Source of the DNA: a virus
Lineage: Duplodnaviria; Caudoviricetes
IMG/VR virus record: IMGVR_UViG_3300044712_000786
Coordinates: 32,001-96,000 of that record
Strand: one strand, 5' to 3'
Length of the DNA stretch: 64,000 nt
In this document: positions 1 through 27,213 of the stretch, piece by piece
How the letters are laid out: each line of letters opens with the position of its first letter
Position numbering within the stretch: position 1 is the stretch's first letter
The notes under the pieces: generated by a model
The model's database searches: none
Seen by the model: the letters and a program-made list of their open reading frames with translations, nothing else
What the model was told of the DNA's origin: nothing
Program-made: the position numbers and the translations under genes

Positions 1-2
1 TA

Positions 3-10996: not shown

Positions 10997-12121
10997 ATGG
11001 CAAGAAATCGTGTTATTTACCAGTCTGAAGGCGTGTTCGTTGGTCAAAAGACCCCTTGCACTGGCGACCACTACCCCGCAGATATCAAAGAAATTTATCG
11101 TGTACAAAGCGCGAACTACTCTTTCAACCTTAATAAGCGTGACGTTAACCAGTTTGGTGAACTAGCCGCTATTGATAGAGTCGTTCTCGACCCTCCCACT
11201 GTTTCCCTTGACGCTACTTATTTGCTCGCAAACGCTTATAATGAGAACGCTTTGGGAATGAACGTTGCCGTTGCTGGAACTGCTACTTGGAGCAATGCTC
11301 TAACTGGTATTCTTGGCGGCACCACTGACCAAAAATGTATTTGGGTGAAGACAGTTGCTTATGGCTCCGACCTTCATAACCTTAATACTACTGGCGCTTC
11401 AGTAACTCCTTTCGGCGTTATTGGCTTTGGTAATGGTTATTTAAGCTCATATTCTGTTGATGCTTCGGTTGGTGATTTTCCTCGCGCTAGCGTTCGTTTC
11501 GACGCATCAAACGTTAAGTTCGATAACTTTACTGGCGGTGGATTTACTAACTATGCAACCCAAGCTTTAGTAAGCCCCGCTATTTCGATTACGGACGGCA
11601 CGCTTATTAACTCTAAGTATTGGTTGCCTTCTGGTGTTTCGACTACCGACGCTACGGATAAGACTACTGTGTTACGTCCCGGTGACCTTGTGTTTGATTG
11701 GGCTAGCGCAACTGGCTTCATGGGAGCTAACCTTGCTGACGCTAAAATTCAGAGCTTCTCGATGTCTGCTGACGTTGCTAGAACCCCGCTGAATCGTCTT
11801 GGCACTAAGTTCCCATTCTCATACGAAATTAATTTCCCTATTAATGCTACGTTGAGAGTGTCGGCTAACGTTGGTGATATGAATACTGGCTCGCTTACTG
11901 CCCTAGTTAGCGATACTGGTAGCTTCGACCTGACCGTTAAGATTAATAAGCCGGGTACTACTACCGTTGCTTATGCTGCCGCTCTTAAGGGCGCTCAGCT
12001 TGACTCTCAGGAATATAGCTCGTCCATCGGTGATAACAAATCCGTTAACTGGAGCTTCTCGGTTCCTATCGGTGGCGTTAACGATGTTACTAAGGGCTTG
12101 TTCATCAGTGGTTTGCTGTAA
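10997..12121 (+). CDS. Major tail tube protein
   Basis: beta-rich S/T/G/A composition; precedes chaperones and tape measure; own late motif and terminator. Confidence 0.7.
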   Translation: MARNRVIYQSEGVFVGQKTPCTGDHYPADIKEIYRVQSANYSFNLNKRDVNQFGELAAIDRVVLDPPTVSLDATYLLANAYNENALGMNVAVAGTATWSNALTGILGGTTDQKCIWVKTVAYGSDLHNLNTTGASVTPFGVIGFGNGYLSSYSVDASVGDFPRASVRFDASNVKFDNFTGGGFTNYATQALVSPAISITDGTLINSKYWLPSGVSTTDATDKTTVLRPGDLVFDWASATGFMGANLADAKIQSFSMSADVARTPLNRLGTKFPFSYEINFPINATLRVSANVGDMNTGSLTALVSDTGSFDLTVKINKPGTTTVAYAAALKGAQLDSQEYSSSIGDNKSVNWSFSVPIGGVNDVTKGLFISGLL

Positions 12122-12677: not shown

Positions 12678-13424
12678 ATGAAAAAACTACATGAATTCAC
12701 AGTAAACAAAGAACAAGAAGTTGACGAAGCTATTGTTAGCAAAGACGAAAAGGGTCAGGAAATTACCACTATTACTAAGGTAAAGAAGCCCGTTCCCCAA
12801 AAGTTTTTCCTAGCTAAGCCAACTCGTTCCTTATATGACGAAGCGGACCTATTCTACGCCGTAAAGCTATCTGAAGGCATTAAGGCGGGGCTGCTAACTA
12901 AACCCCTGCTGGCTAAGCGTTATGCTAACGATGGCGGCTCCATGAGCGAACCAGAAAAGCAAACCTACGCTAACTTATATGTTAATCTGTTTGAAAAGCA
13001 GAGCGAATATCAGAAATTTATTTCCGAGAAGCCTGAGACAGAGCGCACGGCAGAAGATAAAGCTAAGATTAGCGAGATTCTTAAGGATTTAACTAATCTT
13101 CGTCAGCAAATTCAAGAATTTGAGCTATCTCAATCTAGTTTGTTCGACCAAACCGCCGAAAGCAGAGCTAGGAATAAGACTATCCTTTGGTGGGTTCTTT
13201 TCCTTTGTCACAAGGTAGAAGGGGATAAAGAGCTTCCCTATTTCGGTGAAGGGGACTATGACTCTAGGCTAGCTAAATATGACGAGATAGAAGAAATAGA
13301 AGACCAGTTCGTTACTGATACTGTGTCCAAGTTCCTTTACTACGTAAGTTTCTGGTATATGGGTAAAGCGTCCAATCCCGAAGATTTTGCCATGTTAGAT
13401 AAGCTCCAAGAAGAAAATAAATAG
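12678..13424 (+). CDS. Putative tail assembly chaperone
   Basis: Helical, acidic; between tube and tape measure. Confidence 0.5.
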   Translation: MKKLHEFTVNKEQEVDEAIVSKDEKGQEITTITKVKKPVPQKFFLAKPTRSLYDEADLFYAVKLSEGIKAGLLTKPLLAKRYANDGGSMSEPEKQTYANLYVNLFEKQSEYQKFISEKPETERTAEDKAKISEILKDLTNLRQQIQEFELSQSSLFDQTAESRARNKTILWWVLFLCHKVEGDKELPYFGEGDYDSRLAKYDEIEEIEDQFVTDTVSKFLYYVSFWYMGKASNPEDFAMLDKLQEENK

Positions 13425-13429
13425 TCCTA

Positions 13430-14434
13430 ATGTTCGATAAGTTTCAAGAAGTTAAATTAAAAATAGCTCTCTTTGAAATTATTCGGGGGTTTACAGTAAT
13501 TGACGTAGGTAGGCATAAGTCTATCTACGTCAAACACTTTACATTCATCGATACTGCCAGTATTGATTTAAAATATGCCGAAGCTTACAAATTCGCTATA
13601 GGTAAAGGCTTGCCCCTTATAGACGAACAGATAAAAACCGCTATTGGCAATAATACATGGACGGAAAAACAGGAAAAAAGATATTCGGAAATTCCCGCCG
13701 AAATCAATACTCTTAAACTAACTAAATCTAAGCTATTTTTAAAAAGGGAACTAGACTCTATTAACTCCGAAATAGAGACGCTGGAAAAAGAGCTTCTTCG
13801 CTTGGAGTATGAGCGTTCTGAGGTAGTAGGTTATACAGCGGAAATATTTGCTACTAAAAAAGCAAATGAACATGCTATTTATTACTCATTCAGGGGTAAG
13901 AACTTAGATACATTTTACTTCTCGGAAGAAGAATACGAAACCTTCTCCAACGAAGAAATTAGCAATCTTATCGTGGGACACGCAGGTTATGTAGCCAAAT
14001 TTACTCCGAAAGAAATGAAGCGTATAGCTATTTCTACGGCTTTCATGAATATGATATATCTAGCTGGAGAAGATATCATGTCATTCTTCGGGAAACCCGT
14101 CTTAGAGCTAACTAATAGACAGATGGAAGTCTATAATTTAGGGCGTTATTTCAAAAATCTAATGGCTGAATATAAGGGAACTATTACGGATGATTTACTA
14201 GCGGACCCAGATAAGTTTATCGAAGCGGCAGAAAATACCAAAACAGCCCAAAATTTCGCAGATAAATTAGATAATAAAGAATCTTCTGGAACAGCTATTG
14301 TAGGCGCTACTAAAGAAGATATCGAAAAACTAGGACTTACTAAAGAAGCTGGAACCATCAGTTTGGCAGACGAAGCCTCTAAAAAGGGCGGCAGCTTGAG
14401 TATGGAAGAGTTAATGAAACTCCACGGATATTAA
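13430..14434 (+). CDS. Putative tail assembly chaperone 2
   Basis: Coiled-coil-like; immediately before tape measure. Confidence 0.45.
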   Translation: MFDKFQEVKLKIALFEIIRGFTVIDVGRHKSIYVKHFTFIDTASIDLKYAEAYKFAIGKGLPLIDEQIKTAIGNNTWTEKQEKRYSEIPAEINTLKLTKSKLFLKRELDSINSEIETLEKELLRLEYERSEVVGYTAEIFATKKANEHAIYYSFRGKNLDTFYFSEEEYETFSNEEISNLIVGHAGYVAKFTPKEMKRIAISTAFMNMIYLAGEDIMSFFGKPVLELTNRQMEVYNLGRYFKNLMAEYKGTITDDLLADPDKFIEAAENTKTAQNFADKLDNKESSGTAIVGATKEDIEKLGLTKEAGTISLADEASKKGGSLSMEELMKLHGY

Positions 14435-14478: not shown

Positions 14479-17400
14479 ATGAACTTAGACGGAAAATTAG
14501 TAATTGGTGCGGACGTAACCCCAGCCCTTAATGAGATAGTAAGGATGGCGGGTAAGCTGCCCCCCTTCAAAATTAGAGTAGACACCCGAAATTTCCCATT
14601 AGGCTCAATGGCGAAATCGGCTGACCAGTTTGCTCAATCCATTCAGGCCGCTAATCAACGTGTGTTAGCTTTCGGAGCTTCGGCGGGAACCATTTACGCA
14701 ATAGAAAAAGCTTTTAGATTCCTAGTATCTTCTACTATCGAAGTAGAAAAGAGACTTACTGAAATCAATGTAATTTTGGGGGCTTCTAGCTCGAACTTAA
14801 AACAATTCAGTAATGAATTATTTAACATTGCCAAAACGACTGGTCAAAGCTTTGATGAAGTATCTAAAGCAGCCCTAGAATTCAGCCGTCAAGGTTTGGG
14901 AGTAACTGAAACTTTAAAAAGAACTCGTGACGCCCTTATCCTGACCCGTCAAACTGGTATTGATGTTGGCGAGGCGGTTAGCGCCATCACCGCTACTTTA
15001 AACAGTTTTACTAAAGCTGCTTATGATTCTACTACGGTAATTAATAAGTTAGCTAAAGTTGACCAAAACTTTGCTGTTAGTGCAGGCGACTTAGTCGAAG
15101 CTATTAAGCGCGTAGGTAGCTCCGCTGAAGACGCGGGAGTTTCCTTGGATGAACTTATCGCTATGGTAACCTCTGCTCAACAGATTACCGCTCGTGGAGG
15201 TTCTGTTATTGGTAACGCCTATAAGACTATCTTTACTAGGTTACAACGTCCTGAAGTATTGAACCAGTTAGAGGAAATTGGTGTAGCCGTTAGAGATAAC
15301 AGTAACGCTATTCTTCCCGCTATTAAAATACTGGAGAACTTCTCTAAGTCCTATGATAACCTTAATCAGTCTCAGAAATCCGCCGCTACTGAATTAGTCG
15401 GTAGCGTTTATCAGATTAACGTTTTAAAAGCTGGATTGAAAGACTTGGGGAGTAGCTATTCTTTCTACGAAAGAGCTTTAAATGACTCCGCTTCCGCTAC
15501 TGATGAAGCTATCCTTCGTAACGAGAAGATGAATAAGTCTATCGCTGCAATGGTGAACTCTACTAAGGAAAGTTGGAAACAACTTTCTGCTGATATTGGC
15601 GAGCAAGCTATTGGCCCAGCTATTAAAAGGGCTTTGGGGGCTTTTGATTTTGCTGCTGGTGGATTAAGCGAACTCTTTTCCAAAAACAAGGGCTCTGGAG
15701 AACAATCAGTTAATATTGGTAAAGACATCGGTCAAGGAATTCTAAAGGGACTTTCTCAATTTATAGAAGGACCGGGATTAGCTTTGGTTGGCTTAGTAAT
15801 GTTTCGCTTCGCTAAAACATTTACTAAATTTGCGATTGATTCTGCTAAAGTAGTTGGCGAACTTAATAAAAATATAGAAAATCGGGCTATCTTGGAAAGC
15901 GAAATTGCGACTGTTTTAGCTCAACAACCTAAAATCTACGAAAGACTTCTAAGCGGAGAGATTACCCGAGAACAAGCGGAAAGGGAAGTTCTTACTATTA
16001 TTAGAAATCAAAATGCCGCCTTAGATATCCAAAAGGGTATTATTACTAGCATGGGAACTTCTATTTCTACTCGTGGAGCAGCGGCAGTTACAAGAGATAA
16101 AAAGGTTGTTGTGGCTGCTTCTAGAGGATACATCCCAAACTTCGCAAACCCCGTTCTTACTGAAAGGGCGGGGGCTTACAAAGCTGGTTACGTGCCGGGA
16201 AAAGTTAAACTTTTCGAAAATAAAGTCATTAATGATGCGGAAAGAGTTATTCCTCCTTCTAATCTAAAAAATCTGGGCTCGACAGCTAATACTTCTGCCA
16301 TCGTCCCTCCTTTAGCTAGCCCCGCTGGACAGGTTTATAAAGCTGCTTTTAAGACTATGTCGGGAGTAGATTTAGCTACTGGACAAAAGGGTTTCATGTA
16401 TGGAAGAAATTACTTTCAACGCGAATGGATTAAAAGCACGGCTAAAAATAGAAAGCTGAGCGTTAATGACCCCGATGTTATTATGACTTTGGGGAAGGAA
16501 TTCGCGAATAAATATGGAACTAAACAGGGGTTCCTTGCTGTAAATAAAGGTTTTGTACCTAATTTCGCGCAGTACCAGTATCCTACCATTGCTGCTATAA
16601 GGAAGCAGCGTCCTCAATTAGGGGATATCTTGAAAAATGCTCCTACAGTTTGGGGGCAGGCTACTGGACAGAGATTCCTTAATCATGATTTGACAGGCGA
16701 TAAAATCCCCATCAGCTATAGAGATAATATTAACTTAGGGGATATGATGAATAACATCCTAGCGAAAGGTAAATTCAGGGCTAGTGAGGGATTCGTTCCT
16801 AGTTTCGCTTCCTTTAAAGAATATAAGGGTATCGGTCTAACCGCCAGAGTCCCCGATAGCGAAATCCTTGACCCCGAAGCTGCTTCAAAATTTGCTCAAA
16901 AACTTTCCTTAGATGGAAACGTATCTACTTTGCTGAAAGTTATTCGTAAAGTTGCACCTAAAAGCCCCGCGCTCGAAGATAATTCTTTGAAATTTGAAGT
17001 AAACTCGGGACTTAGATTTGGTAACGATTTTAAAGCTAGTGGCTTATATCAGTCTGATAATGATACAATATCTATATCCTCTTCTGCTAGAAGCCAGACC
17101 CTAGCTCATGAAATGGGGCATATGGTAGATATATCTTCATTCAGTGATTTTTATAAACAGTCGGGTTTTTCAAGAAAAAAACTTATCAACGCATTAAGAA
17201 GGGACCAAATAAAGTTTAAATCTCGACCTTATTTAATGACTGGAGCTTTTGACGGAGACATGGTTAGAGACATGCTAATGATGTATAGAAGCCCAGATAA
17301 AAGAAATAAGGAAGCTATTGCTGATATTTTTGCGGATTCTGGAAGGATATTCAATCCCAAAATGGAGGATTATAGTCATAAAAAGTATCTAACTACTGGT

Positions 17401-20400
17401 GAAGCGCCGAAAATGATTCGCAAAGGGATTAAGAAAATATTAGGATTAAAATCTAGCGGATTTATTCCTAACTTTGGACCCATCAAAGACCCCTATAAGG
17501 TAAATCCTATTTATCATGTACTAGAGACGATTAGAAAATCAAGTGGCAGCGATTATCAAAATAATTGGGGTGAGCCCATAAACTACGATGAGAGACAAGA
17601 AGAGAATAAAAGACTAATAGCTTCTGTAAAATCTATCGGTTTTGCAGGCTACGGAATCAAAAGTGATAATAAAGATTACCAAATTGGTTCTATGTTTGCC
17701 CCTTATGCTATAACTACTGGATATGAAGAAAAGGAGGTGGCTAAATACATCCCCATGGATAAACTGAAGGCGGCTGGGCTATCCGAAAGACGTATTTATA
17801 AAATGCTCTTTAAAGGAGATAGACTGAGTTCTCGTTTCCAGCAGTATAACGACCCCTTTTCTATCGAATCCTCTCAGGCAAAAATACGCAGAGCCAAAGA
17901 GGGTATCGCCGTTAAAAAAGCCTCTGGAAATACTATAAACCTAAATGCTGCAACATATCTAGCTAGCCGAATGAAGGAAAATAGTCAAGATAAGTGGGCT
18001 CAGCAAAACGCTATTAGCGAAGCTCTTAACACTATAGTTCCTTATCCAGAGCTACAATCTGAGAAACAGGAAGGAAAGGTAGTTAAACAATATCTTAGTT
18101 CAGGCGACAATAAATATAAGCGCGGTTCCCTTAAGGAAACCAAAGAAAAGCTTATGCAATATTTTGGAATCAAAGTAAACAAAACAGACGCCGCAGGAAT
18201 GTTATCTGAGAAACGTCTACTAAGAAGTTTAGGTTTGGCTTCTCGTGGAAGCCCAACTTTAGCAGAGGACAGGGGGCTAGAGCTTAATGACTATAAAAAT
18301 AATCAACAAAGACGTATAACGGTCTCTTCTAAAATAGGTCAATATAGAAAAGAGTTAGAAATAGCTTCTTTAGTTGATAATCCTATATCTCCCGCGATGT
18401 CTTTAGATGACTATAGGCGTTATATTTTAACGCACGGCGCTACTCCAACTACCCCATTTTCGAGGGTAATTACTCAGTTACAAAGGGCGTCTGCTAAGGA
18501 GGACAAGGGGGATAGAAAAACTAATCTAGAATATGCATTACGAAGTATAGCGGGGGGAAGTGTATCATCCACTGCCACAATTAGAAATTTGCCGCGCCTA
18601 AATAAAATATTTCCAGAATTGAAATTGACAAATAAAGAAATTATTAGAGCTTTCAAAAATTCCACTTATGGAAAAATATTCCGACCCGCAGAACAAAAAC
18701 CGTCTATTTTAGGTCAAACGATGGAGTCCCTTAAGGCATTTAAAGGCTTTAGGTCAACTCAAGCAAAGGCTAGATTAGGTAGAGGGGAAGTAAAAGGCGT
18801 TACTCAAGATATGTTCAATTCGGATATAACCCCTTATGCATCATTCTCTATTATTCAAAGGGAAACCCCTAAAAATATACAAGATATCTTATTTAATCTA
18901 GAAAAATCATTTGCCGACAGAGTCAGTCAATCCAAGCTGCTATTTAGAGGCTCTAGTATAATTGAGCCAATGCTAGTTAATCTATTAGGTTCATTTACTT
19001 CTCTAGGAGGTAGGACAGACGAAAAAAGAATAAGGTCTTATCTTACTTCTTCTATTGTAAAATCCGCTAGTTACGGACTTAGCTCTCCGATAGGGGATAA
19101 AAAAGGCGTAGTAAGCATTTATTCTCGACCAATATTGGAAAATTTAGGACTGCTTCAATCTGGTTTAGTTCCTAGTAATGAACAAGCTAATTCTGTTGTT
19201 GCAGAAAGGCTACATAGAAAAGCTTTAATGGGGGTATTAAATCTAGAGAATGGCAGACTGCTTAAGCCAAAAGACTTCATGTCTTCAGTAAGAGATATAG
19301 AAATACCAGAAGAACTGATTCAATTTAATAGGGGACTAAACGAGTTAGCTTCTGGCTCTATTATAAATCGAGCAAGTCCTAAAATAACCTCCACTCCGAT
19401 GGGCGGGGTTATGAACCTATATCGAAAAGTAGAAACAAGTGGAATGACGCCAAGACAAAAAGATTTTAGAGGGCCTAAAACACCGCTGCCTTTCGAAGAT
19501 ATAAAGGGCTGGGATAGCGAGCGAATGGTTAAATACCTACGAAGTTCTCTAGGTGATACTGAAAGGGGAGTAGCTCCATTTGGTTCAGAACATTCTTCTT
19601 ATTTCGATTTAAGATACATGTCTTTTACTGATAGGAAGATGAGAAAAGATATTGCAGAAGGTAGAGTTAGTCTTCAAGATTACTCTTCTATTATTTTCCA
19701 AAGAAAAGTTCCCGTTCAGGAACTTGTAACCCCAGAAAACTTGGGCGATATAATGACTTCTGGGGAAGCTACTAAAAAGAAAATATTTGATAGGGGCGTG
19801 TTTTTTGACCTTCCTCGGTTTAGAGATAAGTTCGGAATTAGTGAACATACTTCAGAACGCGAATATCCATTTTTAACAACTGCTCCCGCTGGAAAAGTAT
19901 CTAACTTCGGTAAAATTTTCGGGCTTTCGAGAAGTAAGGGATATGTTCCTAATTTTGCCTATATTCCCGGCATAAGTCAATTAGCTGGAAGACTACTTAC
20001 TAATATAACTCATACCGAAAGCTATGGGTTAAAAGAAAGAATGGATTCCATCAAACAATTAAAACTTAAAGACTATATTGGGGCTCTGGTAAAAGATATA
20101 CCTACCCCCGCTGCATCCCCTAAAGGAGAGGTATGGAATACTTACGATAGGGATATCCTATTCCGTTCGGTCTTTAAATTGCCACATAGAGTTCTAATGC
20201 CCGAAAATCAAGACTTTCTTAAGTCTAGAAAATTAGTTAAAACTTCTGATAGTACATATAGGTTGACTAACAAAGGACGCATACTAAGTAATGCTTTACA
20301 AAGTCTATCTCAAGGCAAGTATGCTCCACAACCTAATAACCCCAACGAGCTTTATATTCTAGGCCAAAATAAAACTATGGGGGGTTTTGACTTTACGATT

Positions 20401-23400
20401 AACAAAGACCAAAATAAGGTCGGCTATCATGACCTTTGGGATTTCGCCAAAAACCCTTGGGAAAAATTCGATTTCAAAGGCGCGCTAAGTTTTGCTGGCC
20501 AATATGCTAAAAGCGTAGTTAAGAATCGTTCTTTTGGAATGACTGACGAATTAAGGTCTCACCCCTTTGTAGCGGAAGATAACTCGATGTATCGCCAAAG
20601 CCCAGCTTCTATGTTGGCTAGAATGGCAATTAGTCCGTTTGCTAGACCTGTTCGAGTTCAAGACTCTTTCTCCCCTCTAAGTAAAGAGAAAGTAGAAAGA
20701 CTGCAAAAACTCAAGTCCTCTTCTTCATATGGAAGCAAGAGACATAAAGTTTATAATCAAGCTCTAACAGATGATAGCCTAGTAAAGCAACTGCTAGAAC
20801 TAGCAAAAAATCCCCCTCCTTCTGTAGGCATAATGAATAAAGGCTTTGTTCCTAATTTCGTTCTACCCAACAAGGGTTTCTTGGGCTCTCCATTCCCGTT
20901 TGAAGACTTCAGAAAGCTTAAAACGCTTGAAGAGCAATATAAGTTCATTAAAAGCGAGTTTCCTAAAGTGGGGCTAGCTAACCATCCTATTGGCGAGGGC
21001 TCTTCTCGCGCCGTTTATGGTATCGGCGGTAATATGGTATTAAAAATGGTTAAAGATACCAAGCATATTATCGATGGATATAAAAGCCACCCTCTAAACG
21101 AAGCTATTAGACAGAAAGTTTTACTAAAAGGATTTGCTCAAAATCAAACAGAGGGAAGTCAAATGTTTGCTGGCTTCCGAGACATTGTTCCTTATAACTA
21201 TGAAGTAGACGATAGATTCAAATACATCATAGCCGAAAGAGCAGCGGCAATGACCCAAGCAAATGCGGTTAAATTCGGTTATCCATCTGTTTCCGATGCT
21301 CTATATGAGCCCCGCTTCCGTAGGAGACTTACTTCTCTTTATAAAACGGGAGTAATTCCAGATGAAGGTTCTAAAAACTTTGGATTTATAAGGAGAGGGG
21401 GAGAAAATAGACCCGCGTTAATCGACTATGGATTAGACACTCAAACAGCTAAAAATCTATATGGTTTTACTGGGCAGGATTTTATTTCTAAGGGTTTAAT
21501 CCCGAATTTTGCTATAGAGTTTAAGGATAGAAAGCGCATCTATAAGACAGGCTTTGGTGGAGATACAGAGTTTCTAGAAAAGGTTCTATCTAAAATTAGC
21601 CCCGATACATCCTTACTGCAAGCTACTATTCATGGTAGTAGAGACGAATTATTGCAGCGAGTTACCCCAGCGGAATTAGAAGAAATTCTCGCGCTTAAGA
21701 ATATACCTATTAATAAAGACACTATTGCTCATATTAATATAGTAAAAACCCGTTTCGGTAATCTTCCTCATACCTTTGGTATTCAGCAGAAACTTTCTGG
21801 AAGCACGGCCCCCCTTGTGGTTGTTCCTTCGTTCCCAGACCCAGTAATTAACGCTGAAACTGGATTAGGCACTAAAGAAGGTAGGGGAACACTTATTAAT
21901 ACTATCCTAACGAGAAATCCTCGCGGAGAAGGAATAGTTCGCCCATCAGTAGATAGATTTGGACAGATAATGAAGATTCTCCAAGATAAATGGGGTAATA
22001 CTACAGAAGTTATTGGACTAGAAAGAGCTAGGCAGATGTTCGGCCTAAACGCAAAAAGGAAGGCTAGTGGATTCATTCCTAACTTTGCTGACCCGCTTAA
22101 ACTTGCTATAGCTCGCGAAATAGCCGCTGGTGTTCCAGCTAGCTTAATTAAAGTAGAAAATCACGCAAGTCTTAAGAGCGCAAATAATCCATTGGGATTA
22201 GCGGTTACCAATAAAAGAGACGAGCCCAACGGAGTATCCCAAGGTATTTCCCGCGCTATACGCGAGGGAGCTAACCCTAAAACTTATGGTAGCGGTAGGG
22301 TTCCCAACTTTGCTGACCAACCCCGAATTCTAACTGGCTTAAAGGGAATTTTACAGTCTAATCCCGCAACCGATGCTAACTTCAATCAGGGAGTTAGAGA
22401 CGAAATACTAGAAAAAGCTAAGACCCTAGTATTAAAAATGAAAGATAGTCAGGTTCCTATTGGGGAACTCGGGGTTCAAGCAGATAAGGCAGTTAAACAG
22501 TTTACCAAAATGGTAGCTGGTTTGACTAAGTCTCAGGAAATGATTGACTCATTTTCTAAGTCAATTAGTTATTGGAAGAGAGAAAATCAGAAGAACCGCC
22601 CTTCTACTCCGCTGAAGAATCAAGCGGATATTGGGGCTGGATTAGCTGCCCAAAATGCTTTAGAAGCCGAACTTCAAGCAAAAAGACAAGCTCAAGAAGA
22701 AAGAACTCAAAAGAGAAGATTAGATGCTCAAAGTTTCAAAGAAAAGACAATTACATCTACAGTAGGGCGCATTAATCAAGGCGAATTTATTCCTAATATA
22801 AGAAAGCCTATTTTGGCAGATGAAAGAGTAAGCGGAGCCCTGAAAAATCAAGCGATTTCCGTTGTCTCTGATGGAGGATTTGTATTAAGTGGGGATAGGA
22901 AGAAATACTATGACTGGTTAGCGAAGAACGATAAACAAGCCTTCAGGGGCGCTAAACAAATGAGAAACGCTAATCTCCAAAACAGAGCCTTTGGAGTAAG
23001 TTTCGGGGCTTCTATGGTTGGTGGACTAGCTAGCCAATTTATTGGTGACGCTACTCAAGAAAGAAGAGGATATAGTAAAGCTGTCGAAGGTGGGGCTAAC
23101 ACTCTAGCTATGGGAGCATTAGGCTTTCAGGTAGCTGGGCCAGCAGGAGCATTAGCTTTGGGTGCTGTATCGGGATGGGGTGCTGTTACGGATACTATTA
23201 AAGCCTTTAATGACACTCTTCCTGATTTACAAAAGAATCTGGAAGCTGTAACCGAAAGGTCTACAAGGACTTCAGACGCATTTAGTAAGTTCATACAGAC
23301 TAGCGAACAAATCAATAGTATTTTACTAAGTCCTAAACCGGGAGCAGCTAGAGAGTTACAACGCTTACGCACTCAACAATCTTCGGCGCTCGCAGATATT

Positions 23401-26400
23401 CCAGATAGAGACTCATTTGGTAAGTCTGCACGACAAGACCTATTAGACGCATTTAAAACTGGCGACGTAAACAAACAAATCGAAATCTCCGAAAGAGTAG
23501 CTAAGAGAATAGGAACAGAGAAAACCGCTGCCGAATTAGAAACTGGCTTTGCCGAATATCTTGACAAAAATAAGAAGATAAACAGCGAGGGATTTAGCCG
23601 AATTGACAGCTTTGAAAGGACTCTAAGGAGTTCTGTTAATAAGCAGGGATTAACCTTTGACCAATTCTTAGCTACTAATCCCGGCTCCTTAGACTATATT
23701 AAAAGCTCTGGAAGCGCCGAACAAATGGATTCTCGCCTAAGGGAATTAATTAATAAATTCGACCCTAGCTTTAATACTTCGTTTTCTGGAGCATTAAATA
23801 AACTATTTACAGAAGAAGGACCGCTTAAGCAGAACGCATATAAGAGAGTATTTAGCGGAGCTACTAACGAACAATTGGATAGCGAGCGAAAAGCCCTTGA
23901 ATTAATGAATAGAAATCAAGTAGAAAGCGCTAAATATATCGAATCCTTCGGTAATCAAGTTTTCTTAACTAAGGAAAAATTCCGCTCATTTACTGATGAT
24001 ATCGTCGCCTCGATGGAGAGGTTTAATGCTAATCTGCAAGCCGCAAATGAAAGAATAGATATATTCGGTAAGGGTCTAATTGATTTAAATGAACCTTCCT
24101 TGCGCCCCGAGGGACAACTAAATATTAGTCAGGGATTTAGAGATATACAGACAAAAGCGCAAGCCCAATCTCAATTTTCTCTAATTCAGAAACAGTTTGA
24201 ATCTGCTATGAGCGCTGCCCTAACTAAGGCGGAAACCCAAAGGTTCGACGCATTTGAAAAGTTAATGGGCGAAAAAGCTGGTGTTCTAAGTGGCGCTCAA
24301 CAAGTATCTAACGCCGCTTATACCAACGTTCTTTCTGGCGGTGACTTACTACAAAAACTAAACAATATTAATAATAGGACCGAAGTAACGGGTGGATTAT
24401 CTGAGATTAACAAAATTAATCAAGAATCTATCAGAAACACTTTAGAGGAATTTAACAAGATTGCCCGAGAAAAAGATAGCTCTATTACTGCTTTAATAGA
24501 TACTACCGCTAATAAGTTAGCCGCTCTTGATTTAACCAAGACTTTGGAAACTAGCCGCCTTAACTTGAATCAAAAGTTGAATTACGGGGGCGGGTTATCC
24601 GAAATACTAAATGGTAATATCAAAGCCCAGATGGTTCAGCTAGGAACCTCCGCTAATGTAGCTAATACTCTTAGAAACAGCACTGCTCCCGGTGAAGTAG
24701 CTTATCAAAGGGCTGAAATTCTTAAGAAATTCAACGTAGAAGTTCCCGAAAGCCTTAGGAAAGAACTATTTACAGAAAGTAAAAAGAATTTAACTCAAGC
24801 TGGTTTTTCGATTCCCGATGAGGTAATTCAAAAACAAATAGATTCTACATTCCCTAAATCTGACCCAGAGCGAGAAGCTAAAATAATTAAAGCTATGGAG
24901 GAAATGGCTAAACTAAGCCTCGCTGCTGTAAATGAAGAGTCATTAATCAAGCAAACCGAGCTAAGTATTGCTACTCAAACCCAGATTAACACTAAGAATA
25001 TATCTGATGGAATAGCACAAATATTAAAAGATGGATTGAAGGTAAGCGAATCTAAGAACACTAAAGATAGTCCCGCTCCTAGCTCATTTGAAATGCCAAT
25101 GTCTTGGGACATGCCTGCTAATCCGATGCTAAAGTATGATATTGGCTCAGTTTCTAAATCTATTAAATCTAAGGAAGAAGAATTTAAGAAAATAGAAGAT
25201 AATCCTGTAATGACTGTAATGCAGCGCGAAGGATGGTCTCCGTTTGCCGAAGCTAAACCTAAAAAACTTTATACTTTTTCTGATTTAAGGGAGATGGAAA
25301 GACTACAGGGAGAAATTGATAAAGATAAAACGACTCTTGCTAAAATCAAATTAGACGCCGCCAGAAATCAAATCTCTATTCCGTTTGGAATGTCACAAGA
25401 CTGGGAAGATAGCAAACCTAGCAAAATTACCCCTAATATAGGAACAACGAAAGCTAACTTAGGTTATTACGGAGGGATGGCTTATGATTTACCGATGCCG
25501 ATGACCCCTTCTCTGCCAGTCTATAATAACAAGAATATTATTACTCTAGCGGAAATTAAAGCTAAACAAATTAACGCAGCTAACGAAAAGAACTTCGGGG
25601 ATGTTATAAGGGAAGGACCGTTGCCTATTTCAACTACGGACCCAACTGCTCGACCACAAGCTAAAAATACTAGATACGCGGCAGAATTAAGACAGAGAAT
25701 AGAATTAGACGCCGCTACTAAAGATTATATAGCTAGCACGAAAGAATTAACAGAAGCTATGTATGGTGCCGTTGGAGGTTTTACTACCTTTAATGATACC
25801 ATTATCTCTACTCAAAAAACTCTAATTGACTTTGCGGGGTCAGTAAAAGAAGGTTTCCATGACTTAATTGGCTTAGCTATAAGAGGAACGGGCGATATTG
25901 AGGAAAGATTCCGCGAAATGTTCGAGGAAATACTTAATAAAGCCGCAACAAATATGGCTTCTAGCGGACTTGACTTTGTATTTAGCCAAGTTACTAAGGG
26001 TATTGGAGTTGAAAGCCTATTCAAGAATAAGGGCGGTTATATTCCTCGATTCTCTGAGGGTGGAGTAGTAAGAGGGGGTTCGGGAACTAAAGACGATGTT
26101 CTAGCTCAGCTTAGCGGCGGCGAATACGTTATCAATAGGTCCGCTGCTGAAAAAATTGGTTATAAAAACCTAGAAGCAATTAATAAAGGAGGTTCTTCGG
26201 GCGGTCCTTCTAACTGGGACGCTTTTGGGGCTGCTGGTGGAGCCGATTCATTTATTAATCAGCGCTCTAGCGGGATTACCGCTCATTTACAGAATGCTTA
26301 TCGATATAATGACCCTCGTCAGCCAACTGCTGGAGAGGTTGTAGTTGACCCTAGGTTGTCTATCCAAGCTCTAACTGACATGGATAATCCTCAAAGCAGG

Positions 26401-27213
26401 ATTAGAATGGAAAGGGAAGAGAATCTATTAAACTACATAACAGATAAACAAGATTTTCAAAAAGCCCAAGACAAGGCTCAGAAACAGTATAAGGAAGGTC
26501 TATGGTGGAGCTTTGGAACATCTTTAGCTGGCGCTGCTGGCAATACTTGGGCAGCGGGAGCTAAACCTAATACTTTAGGTGGCAAAGACTTTAAGGGAGC
26601 TTATGATACCTCTACTTCGGCTGAAGGCGCTGATTGGTCTAATCCCGGCTTTGAATACGAAAGATTCCAGTGGGATAGTAGTGTATCTCGCAGACCCCTA
26701 ACCCGTAATTCGGGAGGTTCTATCAATTCTAAGACAGCTTTATTAACTGGGGGCGAATATGTTATGTCGCCTGCTACTGTAAGCCGCCTAGGGGTGTCTA
26801 GAATGAATACCTTGAACGCTGGACACGTTCCCACTTTCGCTCTAGGAGGGCTTATGGGCTCTTCTAACGCTGGAAGCTCTCCAGACTCACTTAAGGAGTC
26901 TATAGACAAGCTAGTAGCCGTTTCCCAAGAGATACGGGGCACCCTAGAGGGTAAGGATACTAAAACGGGTAATAAAGATTCGGCACCCGCTATATCCAAT
27001 AACGTTAATATAACTATTTCTGTTACTCAGACTGGAAAAGTCAACTCAGACACTCAAGTTTCGTCTGGTGCAGGGGCTTCCGAGAAGGAAGACAAGAATA
27101 AGAAGCAGGACGAATACAAGAAACTTGGTATGATGATTGAAAACAAGGTCTTGGAAGTTATTGTTCAGGAGCAGAGACCGGGGGGTCTGCTTTATGATTC
27201 CGAATCTCGTTAA
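14479..27213 (+). CDS. Giant tape measure protein (4244 aa) with internal enzyme-like cassettes
   Basis: N-terminal TMP core (LKQFSNELFNIAKTTGQSFDEV...NKLAKVDQNFAVSAGDL...GNAYKTIFTRL); helical distal region; C-terminal GGYIPRFSEGG...LSGGEYVIN module present twice; position after chaperones. Confidence 0.9.
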   Translation: MNLDGKLVIGADVTPALNEIVRMAGKLPPFKIRVDTRNFPLGSMAKSADQFAQSIQAANQRVLAFGASAGTIYAIEKAFRFLVSSTIEVEKRLTEINVILGASSSNLKQFSNELFNIAKTTGQSFDEVSKAALEFSRQGLGVTETLKRTRDALILTRQTGIDVGEAVSAITATLNSFTKAAYDSTTVINKLAKVDQNFAVSAGDLVEAIKRVGSSAEDAGVSLDELIAMVTSAQQITARGGSVIGNAYKTIFTRLQRPEVLNQLEEIGVAVRDNSNAILPAIKILENFSKSYDNLNQSQKSAATELVGSVYQINVLKAGLKDLGSSYSFYERALNDSASATDEAILRNEKMNKSIAAMVNSTKESWKQLSADIGEQAIGPAIKRALGAFDFAAGGLSELFSKNKGSGEQSVNIGKDIGQGILKGLSQFIEGPGLALVGLVMFRFAKTFTKFAIDSAKVVGELNKNIENRAILESEIATVLAQQPKIYERLLSGEITREQAEREVLTIIRNQNAALDIQKGIITSMGTSISTRGAAAVTRDKKVVVAASRGYIPNFANPVLTERAGAYKAGYVPGKVKLFENKVINDAERVIPPSNLKNLGSTANTSAIVPPLASPAGQVYKAAFKTMSGVDLATGQKGFMYGRNYFQREWIKSTAKNRKLSVNDPDVIMTLGKEFANKYGTKQGFLAVNKGFVPNFAQYQYPTIAAIRKQRPQLGDILKNAPTVWGQATGQRFLNHDLTGDKIPISYRDNINLGDMMNNILAKGKFRASEGFVPSFASFKEYKGIGLTARVPDSEILDPEAASKFAQKLSLDGNVSTLLKVIRKVAPKSPALEDNSLKFEVNSGLRFGNDFKASGLYQSDNDTISISSSARSQTLAHEMGHMVDISSFSDFYKQSGFSRKKLINALRRDQIKFKSRPYLMTGAFDGDMVRDMLMMYRSPDKRNKEAIADIFADSGRIFNPKMEDYSHKKYLTTGEAPKMIRKGIKKILGLKSSGFIPNFGPIKDPYKVNPIYHVLETIRKSSGSDYQNNWGEPINYDERQEENKRLIASVKSIGFAGYGIKSDNKDYQIGSMFAPYAITTGYEEKEVAKYIPMDKLKAAGLSERRIYKMLFKGDRLSSRFQQYNDPFSIESSQAKIRRAKEGIAVKKASGNTINLNAATYLASRMKENSQDKWAQQNAISEALNTIVPYPELQSEKQEGKVVKQYLSSGDNKYKRGSLKETKEKLMQYFGIKVNKTDAAGMLSEKRLLRSLGLASRGSPTLAEDRGLELNDYKNNQQRRITVSSKIGQYRKELEIASLVDNPISPAMSLDDYRRYILTHGATPTTPFSRVITQLQRASAKEDKGDRKTNLEYALRSIAGGSVSSTATIRNLPRLNKIFPELKLTNKEIIRAFKNSTYGKIFRPAEQKPSILGQTMESLKAFKGFRSTQAKARLGRGEVKGVTQDMFNSDITPYASFSIIQRETPKNIQDILFNLEKSFADRVSQSKLLFRGSSIIEPMLVNLLGSFTSLGGRTDEKRIRSYLTSSIVKSASYGLSSPIGDKKGVVSIYSRPILENLGLLQSGLVPSNEQANSVVAERLHRKALMGVLNLENGRLLKPKDFMSSVRDIEIPEELIQFNRGLNELASGSIINRASPKITSTPMGGVMNLYRKVETSGMTPRQKDFRGPKTPLPFEDIKGWDSERMVKYLRSSLGDTERGVAPFGSEHSSYFDLRYMSFTDRKMRKDIAEGRVSLQDYSSIIFQRKVPVQELVTPENLGDIMTSGEATKKKIFDRGVFFDLPRFRDKFGISEHTSEREYPFLTTAPAGKVSNFGKIFGLSRSKGYVPNFAYIPGISQLAGRLLTNITHTESYGLKERMDSIKQLKLKDYIGALVKDIPTPAASPKGEVWNTYDRDILFRSVFKLPHRVLMPENQDFLKSRKLVKTSDSTYRLTNKGRILSNALQSLSQGKYAPQPNNPNELYILGQNKTMGGFDFTINKDQNKVGYHDLWDFAKNPWEKFDFKGALSFAGQYAKSVVKNRSFGMTDELRSHPFVAEDNSMYRQSPASMLARMAISPFARPVRVQDSFSPLSKEKVERLQKLKSSSSYGSKRHKVYNQALTDDSLVKQLLELAKNPPPSVGIMNKGFVPNFVLPNKGFLGSPFPFEDFRKLKTLEEQYKFIKSEFPKVGLANHPIGEGSSRAVYGIGGNMVLKMVKDTKHIIDGYKSHPLNEAIRQKVLLKGFAQNQTEGSQMFAGFRDIVPYNYEVDDRFKYIIAERAAAMTQANAVKFGYPSVSDALYEPRFRRRLTSLYKTGVIPDEGSKNFGFIRRGGENRPALIDYGLDTQTAKNLYGFTGQDFISKGLIPNFAIEFKDRKRIYKTGFGGDTEFLEKVLSKISPDTSLLQATIHGSRDELLQRVTPAELEEILALKNIPINKDTIAHINIVKTRFGNLPHTFGIQQKLSGSTAPLVVVPSFPDPVINAETGLGTKEGRGTLINTILTRNPRGEGIVRPSVDRFGQIMKILQDKWGNTTEVIGLERARQMFGLNAKRKASGFIPNFADPLKLAIAREIAAGVPASLIKVENHASLKSANNPLGLAVTNKRDEPNGVSQGISRAIREGANPKTYGSGRVPNFADQPRILTGLKGILQSNPATDANFNQGVRDEILEKAKTLVLKMKDSQVPIGELGVQADKAVKQFTKMVAGLTKSQEMIDSFSKSISYWKRENQKNRPSTPLKNQADIGAGLAAQNALEAELQAKRQAQEERTQKRRLDAQSFKEKTITSTVGRINQGEFIPNIRKPILADERVSGALKNQAISVVSDGGFVLSGDRKKYYDWLAKNDKQAFRGAKQMRNANLQNRAFGVSFGASMVGGLASQFIGDATQERRGYSKAVEGGANTLAMGALGFQVAGPAGALALGAVSGWGAVTDTIKAFNDTLPDLQKNLEAVTERSTRTSDAFSKFIQTSEQINSILLSPKPGAARELQRLRTQQSSALADIPDRDSFGKSARQDLLDAFKTGDVNKQIEISERVAKRIGTEKTAAELETGFAEYLDKNKKINSEGFSRIDSFERTLRSSVNKQGLTFDQFLATNPGSLDYIKSSGSAEQMDSRLRELINKFDPSFNTSFSGALNKLFTEEGPLKQNAYKRVFSGATNEQLDSERKALELMNRNQVESAKYIESFGNQVFLTKEKFRSFTDDIVASMERFNANLQAANERIDIFGKGLIDLNEPSLRPEGQLNISQGFRDIQTKAQAQSQFSLIQKQFESAMSAALTKAETQRFDAFEKLMGEKAGVLSGAQQVSNAAYTNVLSGGDLLQKLNNINNRTEVTGGLSEINKINQESIRNTLEEFNKIAREKDSSITALIDTTANKLAALDLTKTLETSRLNLNQKLNYGGGLSEILNGNIKAQMVQLGTSANVANTLRNSTAPGEVAYQRAEILKKFNVEVPESLRKELFTESKKNLTQAGFSIPDEVIQKQIDSTFPKSDPEREAKIIKAMEEMAKLSLAAVNEESLIKQTELSIATQTQINTKNISDGIAQILKDGLKVSESKNTKDSPAPSSFEMPMSWDMPANPMLKYDIGSVSKSIKSKEEEFKKIEDNPVMTVMQREGWSPFAEAKPKKLYTFSDLREMERLQGEIDKDKTTLAKIKLDAARNQISIPFGMSQDWEDSKPSKITPNIGTTKANLGYYGGMAYDLPMPMTPSLPVYNNKNIITLAEIKAKQINAANEKNFGDVIREGPLPISTTDPTARPQAKNTRYAAELRQRIELDAATKDYIASTKELTEAMYGAVGGFTTFNDTIISTQKTLIDFAGSVKEGFHDLIGLAIRGTGDIEERFREMFEEILNKAATNMASSGLDFVFSQVTKGIGVESLFKNKGGYIPRFSEGGVVRGGSGTKDDVLAQLSGGEYVINRSAAEKIGYKNLEAINKGGSSGGPSNWDAFGAAGGADSFINQRSSGITAHLQNAYRYNDPRQPTAGEVVVDPRLSIQALTDMDNPQSRIRMEREENLLNYITDKQDFQKAQDKAQKQYKEGLWWSFGTSLAGAAGNTWAAGAKPNTLGGKDFKGAYDTSTSAEGADWSNPGFEYERFQWDSSVSRRPLTRNSGGSINSKTALLTGGEYVMSPATVSRLGVSRMNTLNAGHVPTFALGGLMGSSNAGSSPDSLKESIDKLVAVSQEIRGTLEGKDTKTGNKDSAPAISNNVNITISVTQTGKVNSDTQVSSGAGASEKEDKNKKQDEYKKLGMMIENKVLEVIVQEQRPGGLLYDSESR
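16126..22314 (+). repeat. Nine copies of peptide motif G[FYLR][IV]P[NS]F[AGV] inside the TMP
   Basis: Motif starts at nt 16126, 16549, 16789, 17458, 19939, 20842, 21493, 22069, 22294; looser copies near 22783, 26035 and 26821. Confidence 0.9.

Follow-up and report, generated by a model that had tools for sequence, protein, structure and literature searches.

A giant phage tape measure protein with a motif-delimited array of apparently modular cassettes, one with a predicted ADP-ribosyltransferase fold

Introduction

The tape measure proteins (TMPs) of phages lambda and T5 are cleaved within assembled tails (PMC12617516; PMC10038345). Maturation cleavage of T5 pb2 after R1127 (...SFVPR↓AEGG...; the arrow marks the cut) produces pb2* and pb2C (Linares et al. 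2023, PMC10038345) and parts an enzymatic domain from the ruler (PMC10038345), and lambda gpH is converted to gpH* and the ~14 kDa gpHC (PMC12617516). The 5,002-aa TMP gp96 of Thermus phage P23-45 contains at its N-terminus a virion RNA polymerase responsible for transcription of the pre-early genes (PMC10770324). Polyvalent proteins are giant chains of unrelated effector domains, including ADP-ribosyltransferases (ARTs), kinases, zincin peptidases and nucleases (Iyer et al. 2017, PMC5512222); mosaicism among them is extensive, and they are believed to accompany the DNA and to come apart once deployed (PMC5512222). In the Sle1-type effectors of actinobacterial contractile injection systems, a TMP-derived scaffold with an exchangeable functional domain is loaded in the tail-like tube (PMC13277306).

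Here we analyzed a TMP gene in a 64,000-nucleotide window, the whole stretch under study, from the 203-kb (202.7 kb) genome of an uncultured phage. An earlier note on this DNA had proposed that the protein carries a row of effector-like cassettes bounded by a short motif.

Results

The protein, P0001, matched the Pfam family PF10145 (PhageMin_Tail) over residues 118-305 (E 6e-29) and 13 PHROG tape measure families (best E 7e-49), and was ~26% identical to the TMPs of Bacillus and Lactococcus siphophages. By these sequence matches P0001 is a TP901-type TMP, in agreement with the earlier assignment. A hydropathy scan located hydrophobic stretches at residues 424-453 of the N-terminal domain and at residues 2837-2903 of the C-terminal part. 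The surrounding tail-gene neighbourhood was conserved in 20-45 of 57 loci, and two conserved genes without assigned function immediately preceded the TMP gene in 44-45 of them. No sheath family was found in the 203-kb genome.

Nine copies of a delimiter, G-[FYLR]-[IV]-P-[NS]-F-[AGV], were present between nt 16126 and 22314 (Table 1), and the eight segments that they bound (cassettes 1 to 8) were 134, 73, 216, 820, 294, 210, 185 and 68 aa long; the array and its segment lengths are thus confirmed. The strict form G[FY][IV]PNF fits six of the nine copies and did not occur once in 2000 shuffles of P0001, and the motif was absent from every other ORF >72 codons when all six frames of the 202.7-kb genome were scanned. 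In the family logo, built from 227 instances, G, P and F were invariant and N was found at 96%, and the delimiter could be extended to the decapeptide A-[AS]-x-G-[FY]-[IV]-P-N-F-A.

Table 1. Positions of the TMP gene, its domains, delimiters and cassettes in the window
Feature	Residues	Nucleotides	Strand	Remark
Tape measure protein gene (P0001)	1-4244	14479..27213	+	single stop-free frame
N-terminal TP901-type TMP domain	1-549	14479..16125	+	42-53% identity kept in all relatives
Delimiter 1, GYIPNFA	550-556	16126..16146	+	sequence
Cassette 1	557-690	16147..16548	+	P0003 homologue covers cassette end to end
Delimiter 2, GFVPNFA	691-697	16549..16569	+	sequence
Cassette 2, orphan	698-770	16570..16788	+	no family match
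Delimiter 3, GFVPSFA	771-777	16789..16809	+	sequence
Cassette 3, zincin-like candidate	778-993	16810..17457	+	HEMGH 877-881, EAIAD 945-949
Delimiter 4, GFIPNFG	994-1000	17458..17478	+	sequence
Cassette 4	1001-1820	17479..19938	+	C-terminal half common to six other giant TMP-like proteins
Predicted ART-fold core in cassette 4	~1481-1599	18919..19275	+	AF2 model and fold comparison
Delimiter 5, GYVPNFA	1821-1827	19939..19959	+	sequence
Cassette 5	1828-2121	19960..20841	+	recurs in P0002
Delimiter 6, GFVPNFV	2122-2128	20842..20862	+	sequence
Cassette 6, protein-kinase-like candidate	2129-2338	20863..21492	+	complete kinase motif set
Delimiter 7, GLIPNFA	2339-2345	21493..21513	+	sequence
Cassette 7, orphan	2346-2530	21514..22068	+	no family match
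Delimiter 8, GFIPNFA	2531-2537	22069..22089	+	sequence
Cassette 8	2538-2605	22090..22293	+	sole family-wide conserved module
Delimiter 9, GRVPNFA	2606-2612	22294..22314	+	sequence
C-terminal ruler and channel part	2613-4244	22315..27210	+	two GG..GEYV end modules
Degenerate motif GYIPRFS	3853-3859	26035..26055	+	just before first GG..GEYV module
Degenerate motif GHVPTFA	4115-4121	26821..26841	+	leaves 123-aa C-terminal piece

The set of relatives comprised 107 distinct giant TMPs: 49 came from a protein search, five from an exhaustive search and the rest from 57 viral contigs. All but one contained two to 15 motifs. The end points of homology lay a median of 5 residues from the nearest motif versus 47 for random positions, and 51% of them were ≤5 residues away versus 7% of random positions. 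In two close pairs of relatives, L007/P0022 (71-83% identical) and L012/P0013 (75% identical), one member had exactly one more cassette and one more motif than the other. The architecture table of the relatives showed identical cassette clusters in varied combinations and orders, and cassettes 4 and 5 of P0001 stood in swapped order in P0002. These sequence comparisons indicate that the cassettes are true modules, that the unit of gain, loss, duplication and reordering is a cassette together with its motif, and that the cassettes come from a large, fast-turning pool. The turnover exactly at the motif and the single-cassette differences bear out the earlier proposal of cassette gain and loss at this peptide.

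Gain and loss exactly at the motif could also arise if it were a DNA-level recombination site, that is, a by-product of shuffling that has no role in the protein. However, codons differed at every motif position among the nine copies (3 Gly, 4 Pro, 2 Asn and 2 Phe codons), which places the conservation at the protein level, as had been claimed, and there was no conserved DNA word. Moreover, the 227 near-invariant amino acid motifs sit in proteins whose sequences elsewhere share 15-45% identity. The recombination-site explanation is thus largely refuted and we regard it as highly improbable.

Cassette 8 was 57-71% identical across the aligned module (32 aligned relatives) and was present on 57 viral contigs; it always began immediately after a motif and was usually the last cassette before the C-terminal region, and neither a Pfam nor a PDB relative was found for it. 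The first ~75 aa of cassette 1 were related to the small cassette that comes first in the minimal family members (hhalign probability 97%, cluster 5). Cassette 5, which was unrelated to the family core cassette, also matched P0068 to P0072. Cassettes 1, 5 and 8 recurred solely in related TMPs. Cassette 2 had no homologue among 49 relatives, cassette 7 had no match among 1.84 billion representative proteins, and neither matched Pfam; indeed, no Pfam profile recognised any P0001 cassette, and the Pfam PolyVal ART and kinase profiles gave no match on P0001. Identity to P0002 was 48% for cassette 5 (end to end with its residues 1165-1457), 38% for the C-terminal half of cassette 4 (4C) and 42% for the N-terminal domain, suggesting that the cassettes are constrained like the N-terminal core.

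The N-terminal half of cassette 4 was an orphan with no detectable family. In its C-terminal half, FRG (1489-1491) and the T-S (1507-1508) of FTS (1506-1508) were unchanged in all seven proteins compared, at 25-39% identity, and the Glu expected in an R-S-E type ART was missing in two of the seven. An AF2 model containing the core (m5c8299c94b27) had a mean pLDDT of 67; its matched core scored 65-93 per ten-residue block, except for a loop at model residues 151-157 (<50). VIA-align superposed this model on Tpt1/KptA (8tg6) with Z 10.8 (rmsd 2.0 A, 96 aa) and on heat-labile toxin LT, cholera toxin CT, pertussis S1, TreX and Scabin with Z ~7, and the toxin-type ART matches included Rhs toxins (Z ~7). 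The ART superfamily dominated both the PDB and the AFDB lists of Foldseek. According to this model, cassette 4 has a toxin-like ART fold with putative enzyme activity, and it is the one cassette of the eight with such predicted fold-level support.

The catalytic signatures described in the earlier note were all present, namely HEMGH, FRG with FTS, and kinase-like motifs at 2171-2318. The ART assignment was strengthened by the fold match to Tpt1. For the kinase and the zincin, complete motif sets and language-model look-alikes were found but no profile or fold. Cassette 6 contained a G-loop (2171-2180), VLK (2187-2189), AQNQTE (2220-2225), D..N (2295-2300) and DYG (2316-2318), and its only homologue, the free-standing 229-aa P0074, had the full kinase motif set as well. 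Its look-alikes in the Atlas were SteC effector kinase clusters (0.95) and one Kinase-PolyVal cluster (0.94); its AF2 model was unusable (pLDDT 40.6). Cassette 3 contained HExxH plus ExxxD, as read from the sequence, and its Atlas look-alikes included ATLF, Peptidase_M90 and DUF7211 clusters (scores 0.91-0.95). It matched Pfam DUF6782 at E 0.06 only, and the search for a homologue, including among the 49 relatives, found none. We consider cassette 6 a candidate minimal protein-kinase-like domain and cassette 3 a candidate HExxH/ExxxD zincin-like domain.

The cassettes might instead serve chiefly as filler for length or packing, or be decayed captured genes; they would then be inactive and tune tail length or ejection mechanics, with the motif as a tolerated junction. 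Most cassettes have no recognisable family, and the Glu lost from two ART homologues would agree with decay. An embedded motif in the TMP of mycobacteriophage TM4 reportedly counts toward tail length (Piuri and Hatfull 2006). However, conservation of the cassettes equals that of the essential N-terminal domain, the kinase motifs are kept in full in cassette 6 and in its free-standing homologue, the FRG and T-S residues have stayed invariant in divergent proteins, and an invariant 10-residue delimiter would be needless. Inert filler is therefore an improbable explanation.

Discussion

We are highly confident that P0001 is a TMP, that it bears the motif array and a predicted ART fold, and that its cassettes evolve as modules at the motif. 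The observation of the earlier note is confirmed and its overall interpretation is partly supported. We propose that eight unrelated, independently folding cassettes form a "cargo train" between the N-terminal TP901-type domain and the C-terminal ruler and channel. The TMP would be assembled into the tail lumen. As in other siphophages, it would then leave the tail before the DNA and enter the cell envelope, thereby bringing the cassettes to the host. ART, kinase and zincin are enzyme types that act on cytoplasmic substrates. Because modules turn over exactly at the peptide and one has a toxin-like enzyme fold, the ruler probably doubles as a carrier of enzymes into the host. We infer the presence of the cassettes in virions, their delivery, cleavage and enzyme activity, which may be host-modifying or anti-defence as the earlier note suggested, and give the whole chain, from cargo-train TMP to active enzymes, a probability of roughly 0.45.

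For the delimiter we favour, by analogy, a TMP maturation site of the T5 kind, because it resembles the published T5 cut site (FVPR↓A). The cut would then follow Asn (G-F-I-P-N↓F-A) and free the cassettes from the ruler. The T5 P4-P1 residues F-V-P-R fit [FY][IV]P[NR], and BLASTP places GYIPRFS of P0001 onto the pb2 cut site; this likeness is short and was spotted post hoc, and the pairwise alignment is weak and not significant (E 0.19). A related junction, GG-x-[IV]-x-[KRN]-[FY]-A-x-GG, was found in front of the GE[FY]V modules at the C-terminus of 34 of 90 family TMPs, compared with 5.7% of random windows. The genes neighbouring the TMP contained no protease signature, no candidate protease was conserved with the TMP, and the MPTase-PolyVal gene of this genome was missing from two complete relatives. 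Since cutting at all motifs would split the N-terminal domain from the ruler, cleavage could occur only after tail assembly. A difficulty for the cargo proposal is space: 2,000 globular residues, present three (or six) times, would have to fit a tube lumen of ~4 nm.

Alternatively, the motif may stay uncut and act as a docking or register peptide for the tail assembly chaperone, the inner wall of the tube or the motif in other TMP chains. The tube could then polymerise over the non-helical stretch, and the ruler and channel would not release the cassettes. The motif is short, aromatic, Pro-containing and confined to the TMP, it falls in a very-low-confidence region (model residues 445-471, pLDDT <50), as is common for docking motifs, and the two conserved upstream genes could supply a partner. 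However, docking leaves the T5 likeness unaccounted for, no partner was identified, and polyvalent proteins are thought to come apart on deployment (PMC5512222). We consider docking a serious but rather unlikely alternative to processing.

TMP-fused enzymes, as in P23-45, and polyvalent proteins are already published; a delimiter-bounded, shuffled cassette array appears to be unpublished. The T5 site ...SFVPR↓AEGG... resembles both G[FY][IV]PN↓FA and GGYIPRF↓SEGG of P0001, although P1 is Arg in T5 and Asn in the delimiter and the T5 site lacks the invariant Phe. Lambda gpH and T5 pb2 share the GG..GE[FY]V end module with P0001, whose 123-aa C-terminal piece after GHVPTFA is comparable in size to gpHC. 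[quoted passage not shown] In P23-45, too, a giant TMP is fused to an enzyme whose site of action is the host cytoplasm, at the very start of infection, with the cargo in the N-terminal part, but that enzyme is single, fixed and essential, and a delimiter, cassette pool or shuffling is not reported there (PMC10770324). Polyvalent proteins of phages and conjugative elements are described as packaged in the head or transferred by conjugation, in contrast to the TMP-borne cassettes of P0001, and the paper on them reports no conserved delimiter and does not mention TMPs ("tape" occurs 0 times; PMC5512222). The Sle1-type effectors resemble P0001 in that a TMP scaffold carries an exchangeable functional domain, but theirs is a single C-terminal domain in a contractile non-phage particle, whereas that of P0001 is a motif-bounded array.

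A motif-delimited cassette array in the tape measure protein

P0001, the 4244-aa tape measure protein (TMP), is encoded by the longest ORF in the window, open over 4244 codons, in a 202.7-kb IMG/VR virus record that has direct terminal repeats and of which the window covers bases 32001-96000. When tested against TMP-family profiles (TP901 and PhageMin_Tail), P0001 scored above the curated cut-off, with PF10145 (PhageMin_Tail) matching within the first 400 residues with a score of 101.8 bits (cut-off 33.2; E 6e-29). The same residues matched 13 PHROG tape measure families (E down to 7e-49), and the N-terminal part is ~26% identical to TMPs of Bacillus and Lactococcus siphophages. P0001 also contains hydrophobic stretches and, in its C-terminal part, two GG..GE[FY]V end modules of the kind present in lambda gpH and T5 pb2, with which its sequence was compared. 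Eight genes upstream are kept alongside the TMP gene in 20-45 of 57 related loci, indicating a tail gene module, and searches did not put a name to the individual neighbours. Tail fibre-like genes are found upstream of the TMP gene, and no sheath family was found in the genome.

The presence of a motif-delimited cassette array in this TMP was confirmed. The delimiter, G-[FYLR]-[IV]-P-[NS]-F-[AGV], occurs nine times and separates cassettes 1-8, and its span and the intervals between copies were exactly those reported in the earlier note. Its strict form, G[FY][IV]PNF, did not occur once in 2000 shuffles of P0001, and a six-frame scan of the whole genome detected no further copy in any other ORF of more than 72 codons. 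Codon choice differs among the nine copies at every position, so that selection acts on the peptide and not on a DNA word; the earlier description of a delimiter conserved as protein with variable codons is thereby borne out, and this variation largely excludes a DNA-level recombination site. In a logo of 227 non-identical instances the consensus was A-[AS]-x-G-[FY]-[IV]-P-N-F-A, in which G, P and F are invariant and N is present in 96%; Ser or Thr replaces the Asn in ~3% of motifs.

Coordinates of features in the window and in P0001 (nucleotide positions on the window; residue numbers of P0001)
Feature	Window position (strand)	P0001 residues	Remark
374-aa protein	10997-12121 (+)		looks like a paralogue of the 436-aa protein
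First conserved gene upstream of TMP	12678-13424 (+)		could be a tail assembly chaperone
Second conserved gene upstream of TMP	13430-14434 (+)		could be a tail assembly chaperone
TMP (P0001)	14479..27213 (+)		4244 aa
TMP gene and converging head gene	14479-28072
Nine delimiter copies, total span	16126-22314
Cassette 8	22090-22293 (+)		68-70 aa; alignment A5
Head-decoration-like ORF	27158-28072 (-)		304 aa
436-aa protein	30633-31943 (-)		looks like a paralogue of the 374-aa protein
MPTase-PolyVal ORF	45176-46021 (-)		281 aa
Hydrophobic stretches		424-453; 2837-2903
HEMGH, cassette 3		877-881	putative zincin motif
EAIAD, cassette 3		945-949	putative third-ligand Glu
ADP-ribosyltransferase-like core, cassette 4		about 1481-1599	fold supported by model
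FTS, cassette 4		1506-1508
NE, cassette 4		1567-1568	candidate catalytic Glu
End-module junction		3852-3862
GGYIPRF-SEGG		3853-3859 (GYIPRFS)	place equivalent to T5 cut site
GGEYV end modules		3880; 4091

Genes around the TMP

The TMP gene is the last gene of the plus-strand tail operon and converges on minus-strand head genes, its 3′ end overlapping a head-decoration-like ORF by 56 nt. The placement of fibre-like genes before the TMP is an unusual order. The two genes that immediately precede the TMP recur in 44-45 of the 57 related loci and belong to no recognisable family. Judged by position, both could encode tail assembly chaperones. They are also candidates for a partner of the motif; inspection of the two for a protease signature gave nothing either way. 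The 374-aa and 436-aa proteins look like paralogues, because both match one and the same ORF in several related contigs. One is encoded within the tail operon; the gene for the other lies on the opposite strand, surrounded by head genes.

Neither the DNA nor cassette 8 matched the GenBank phage collection, and therefore no cultured relative is at hand. Host-linked matches were confined to four from metagenome bins (Cellvibrionales, Marinimicrobia and Flavobacteriaceae), which are too weak to name a host.

Cassettes are gained, lost and reordered at the motif

A search with P0001 residues 550-2610 returned 49 other giant TMPs of 2338-5468 aa, each with 2-15 motifs after the N-domain, and an IMG/VR scan with cassette 8 added 57 further loci, all with 2-10 motifs. 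When the motif was used as a DNA pattern against IMG/VR, at least 120 entries were obtained; single matches may be due to chance and only multiples on one strand were counted, which gave at least two same-strand matches in ~35 of the 80 entries listed. By the search with residues 550-2610 and the cassette 8 scan, the array is a family trait.

All proteins were cut at the motif and the resulting pieces were clustered. The general layout is an N-domain, a variable number of pool cassettes, a conserved ~70-aa module (cassette 8 in P0001) and a long C-terminal region. Written as cluster numbers, the orders included 0|3|1|4, 0|3|9|1|4, 0|3|27|25|35|1|4, 0|2|25|1|4 and 0|2|21|12|1|4, and duplications (8|8 and 7|7) were also seen; two relatives, P0004 and P0005, each contain the conserved ~70-aa module twice. 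Cassettes 4 and 5 of P0001 occur in reversed order in the related protein P0002, with each alignment reaching up to the motif.

The earlier note had proposed comparing TMP orthologues for the presence or absence of cassettes at the motif, and two close pairs differ by exactly one cassette plus one motif: locus L007 and protein P0022, whose identity is 83% on one side of the gap and 71% on the other, and locus L012 and protein P0013, which are 75% identical. It had also held that the idea would fail if orthologue boundaries were unrelated to the motif. In a set of 107 distinct TMPs, BLAST alignments that ended within an array did so no more than 5 residues from a motif centre in 51% of cases, compared with 7% for random positions, and the median distance to the motif was 5 residues compared with 47; the TMP pairs are not independent, and the effect is large. 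The end points thus cluster at the motif, in favour of the original proposal. These comparisons make a solid case that the cassettes are real modules that evolve modularly at the motif. Cassettes shared with P0002 are 38-48% identical, compared with 42% for the N-domain; they are conserved like that essential domain and are under constraint.

Cassette 4 has a predicted ADP-ribosyltransferase fold

We modelled P0001 residues 1360-1830 with AF2 from a seven-row alignment. The pLDDT was 67 overall and 65-93 per ten-residue block in the matched core, except for a loop (model residues 151-157) at <50. The Foldseek PDB list for this model was filled by the ADP-ribosyltransferase (ART) superfamily, including the Rhs toxins TreX and TreTu, Tpt1/KptA, cholera toxin, LT, DarT and Arr, and the AFDB cluster matches were PARP, pierisin-like and enterotoxin entries. 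The E-values were weak (0.03-0.5 for PDB; 0.003-0.5 for PDB and AFDB together). Structural re-alignment of the core to Tpt1 (8tg6) gave Z 10.8 and an rmsd of 2.0 Å over 96 aa, and re-alignment to LT, cholera toxin, pertussis S1, TreX and Scabin gave a Z of about 7, with model residues 122-240 matched in every case; 17 chains had Z of at least 8. The model therefore supports an ART fold, that is, a split beta-sheet NAD-binding core, in cassette 4.

R1490, within FRG on strand 1, is invariant, as are T1507 and S1508 at the start of the next strand, and these positions are just 17 residues apart. For the Glu of an R-S-E or H-Y-E type signature, the candidate is present in at most six of the seven sequences. 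No Pfam profile matched cassette 4 at E up to 10, PF18760 (ART-PolyVal) matched nothing in the whole genome, and an Atlas search with cassette 4C, the C-terminal half of cassette 4, gave no usable match. As modelled, cassette 4 is a relative of the ART superfamily at the level of fold only.

Kinase-like and zincin-like patterns in cassettes 6 and 3

Cassette 6 contains, in order, a Gly-rich loop, a beta3 Lys (VLK), an alphaC Glu (AQNxTE), a D..N loop and a DFG-type DYG. All five kinase motifs are shared with P0074, a free-standing 229-aa homologue, as a pattern rather than a profile match. Its Atlas language-model neighbours were SteC-type effector kinases and a Kinase-PolyVal cluster (0.94-0.95), which we treat as a lead only. 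PF18762 did not match cassette 6, and a PDB profile search with it found no kinases. The AF2 model from the two-row alignment had an unusable pLDDT of 40.6 and was therefore left out of the fold search. Cassette 6 is a well-founded pattern match to kinases, and we describe it as kinase-like in that sense and no further.

In cassette 3, HEMGH is followed 64 residues on by EAIAD, so that HExxH and an ExxxD third-ligand Glu form a gluzincin layout. Its match to Pfam DUF6782, a putative metallopeptidase, was below the cut-off (E 0.06), and its Atlas neighbours included metallopeptidase clusters, with ATLF, M90 and DUF7211 among the clusters matched. Neither a word-based search nor a scan of viral contigs found homologues of cassette 3. 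The PF18818 match in this genome is in a different gene.

From these motifs, the kinase identity of cassette 6 and the zincin identity of cassette 3 are plausible. At least three catalytic signatures had been read in the array beforehand. The ART now has fold support (Z 10.8 to Tpt1), and the kinase and zincin are complete motif sets that gave no profile match above cut-off. The P0001 array would thus hold one supported and two plausible enzyme folds.

Almost no cassette belongs to a known family

Pfam searches with the whole of P0001 and with each cassette gave nothing above threshold in any cassette, and the arrays of 44 relatives yielded four weak families, each in a single member. PDB sequence and profile searches with cassettes 3, 4, 6 and 8 and with the family core cassette also gave nothing, and a word-based search with cassette 6 alone found no homologue. 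An exhaustive HMMER search with residues 1340-2537 against 1.84 billion representative proteins returned 13 matches including the query: cassettes 4C and 5 were found again chiefly in further giant TMP-like proteins, cassette 6 had one free-standing 229-aa homologue, which is motif-free, and cassette 7 had zero matches.

Cassette 8 is the sole module kept family-wide, with 57-71% identity to P0001 across the part that aligns. Usually it ends the array, just ahead of the C-terminal region, and it has no known relative. A predicted complex of three copies with both motifs scored 0.01, which gave no verdict.

The commonest cassette type in the relatives comprises clusters 2, 3, 10, 17 and 19, which are linked by hhalign, and is about 250-330 aa long (alignment A3; for example, P0022:580-876 and P0023:638-905). 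Its conserved E ... (P)FD ... [DE]xK pattern, which has no Pfam or PDB sequence match, looks like that of a PD-(D/E)xK nuclease. This core cassette is absent from P0001; cassette 5 was considered as its counterpart and rejected (hhalign probability 0.1%). In P0072, a TMP-like fragment returned by the exhaustive search, a motif-bounded cassette of ~80 aa matches Sigma-70 region 4 at residues 113-157 (E 1e-4), and two A3 members match a Myb-like DNA-binding domain. Judged by such matches, some cassettes may bind DNA and not be enzymes.

The delimiter resembles a TMP maturation site

The TMPs of lambda and T5 are cut within assembled tails, and the catalyst and precise site for lambda gpH are unknown (2025 Ur-lambda paper, PMC12617516). 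In T5 the cut has been mapped after R1127, where it parts the metallopeptidase domain from the ruler (PMC10038345). The site in T5 pb2 (NC_005859) reads ...NSFVPR|AEGG... and directly precedes the GG..GE..V end module. In P0001, GGYIPRF-SEGG is in the equivalent place ahead of the first end module, and a BLASTP alignment of P0001 with T5 pb2, which is weak (E 0.19), runs through the cut site. The [FY][IV]PN of the array motif corresponds to F-V-P-R at P4-P1 in T5, and the P0001 site reads YIPR.

A junction that recurs in the C-terminal regions of family TMPs, GG-x-[IV]-x-[KRN]-[FY]-A-x-GG, is similar to the array delimiter as well as to the cut site of T5 pb2. Of 90 family TMPs, 34 have it ahead of the GE[FY]V end modules, compared with 5.7% of random windows. 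In one subclade, the canonical motif itself is 77-115 residues from the C-terminus, and the piece that it bounds recalls the 92-residue T5 pb2C and the 14-kDa lambda gpHC. Because of the likeness to the T5 site, the end-module junction and the C-terminal motif of this subclade, we favour the reading that the delimiter may be a multiplied TMP maturation site. In lambda gpH, AAAKFHFATGG (728-738) has the same position relative to the end module.

As the chief rival we consider a docking or register role, in which the peptide would stay uncut. The likeness to T5 is short and was found after the fact, and no protease conserved along with the TMP was found, both of which weigh against a maturation site; the T5 and end-module correspondences speak for one. 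A maturation site would also require cleavage to wait for the completed tail, a further point against it. Self-cleavage by Asn cyclisation is not favoured, since T5 has Arg at this position and the motif Asn is sometimes replaced.

The genome also encodes a free-standing MPTase-PolyVal (PF18818, E 1e-29, above cut-off), the kind of zincin peptidase that characterises polyvalent and ArdC-like proteins. Since two complete relatives lack the gene, it is not a general partner of the TMP motif, which also counts against the maturation reading; we rejected it as a universal processing protease.

Discussion

TMPs are expected to be part of the particle and to enter the cell along with the DNA, and delivery and cleavage of the cassettes would be a reasonable expectation. 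Enzymes embedded in TMPs are usually cell-wall hydrolases. The recognisable cassettes are enzyme types with cytoplasmic substrates and therefore do not belong to this usual class. A bolder reading, to which we give a probability of roughly 0.3, is that the delimiter serves as recognition element for a general TMP cleavage mechanism common to T5 and perhaps lambda, and that this phage lineage has multiplied it to make the tail lumen a programmable cargo train. Any domain with the decapeptide on both sides would be packed into the tail, enter the cell before the DNA and be set free, and the cassette pool would be a large reservoir of first-strike host-takeover and anti-defence enzymes.

If the reading of a maturation site and delivered cassettes holds, G-[FY]-[IV]-P-N-F-A, compared with FVPR|A in T5, would provide a sequence handle on how TMPs are cleaved in assembled tails, and at which site. 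The only published TMP-fused cytoplasmic enzyme, the virion RNA polymerase of P23-45, would then have counterparts across an entire lineage of aquatic, uncultured phages, in which the tail lumen would serve for modular delivery. The >60 cassette families, nearly all of which have no known relative, would be candidates for early host-takeover or anti-defence functions, and the defined junction could be used for loading foreign proteins into phage tails.

Full-text literature searches with motif strings and related concepts did not find a delimiter-bounded, shuffled cassette array described in TMPs. Enzymes embedded in TMPs are already known from T5 pb2C and from P23-45, where the virion RNA polymerase is fused to a 5,002-aa TMP (PMC10770324), and contractile injection systems have TMP-like reconfigurable effectors (PMC13277306). 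Polyvalent proteins are giant mosaic effector proteins, whose description by Iyer et al. 2017 never mentions tape measure proteins (PMC5512222). Like them, P0001 combines multiple unrelated domains of effector type in a single giant phage polypeptide, and its evolution is mosaic.
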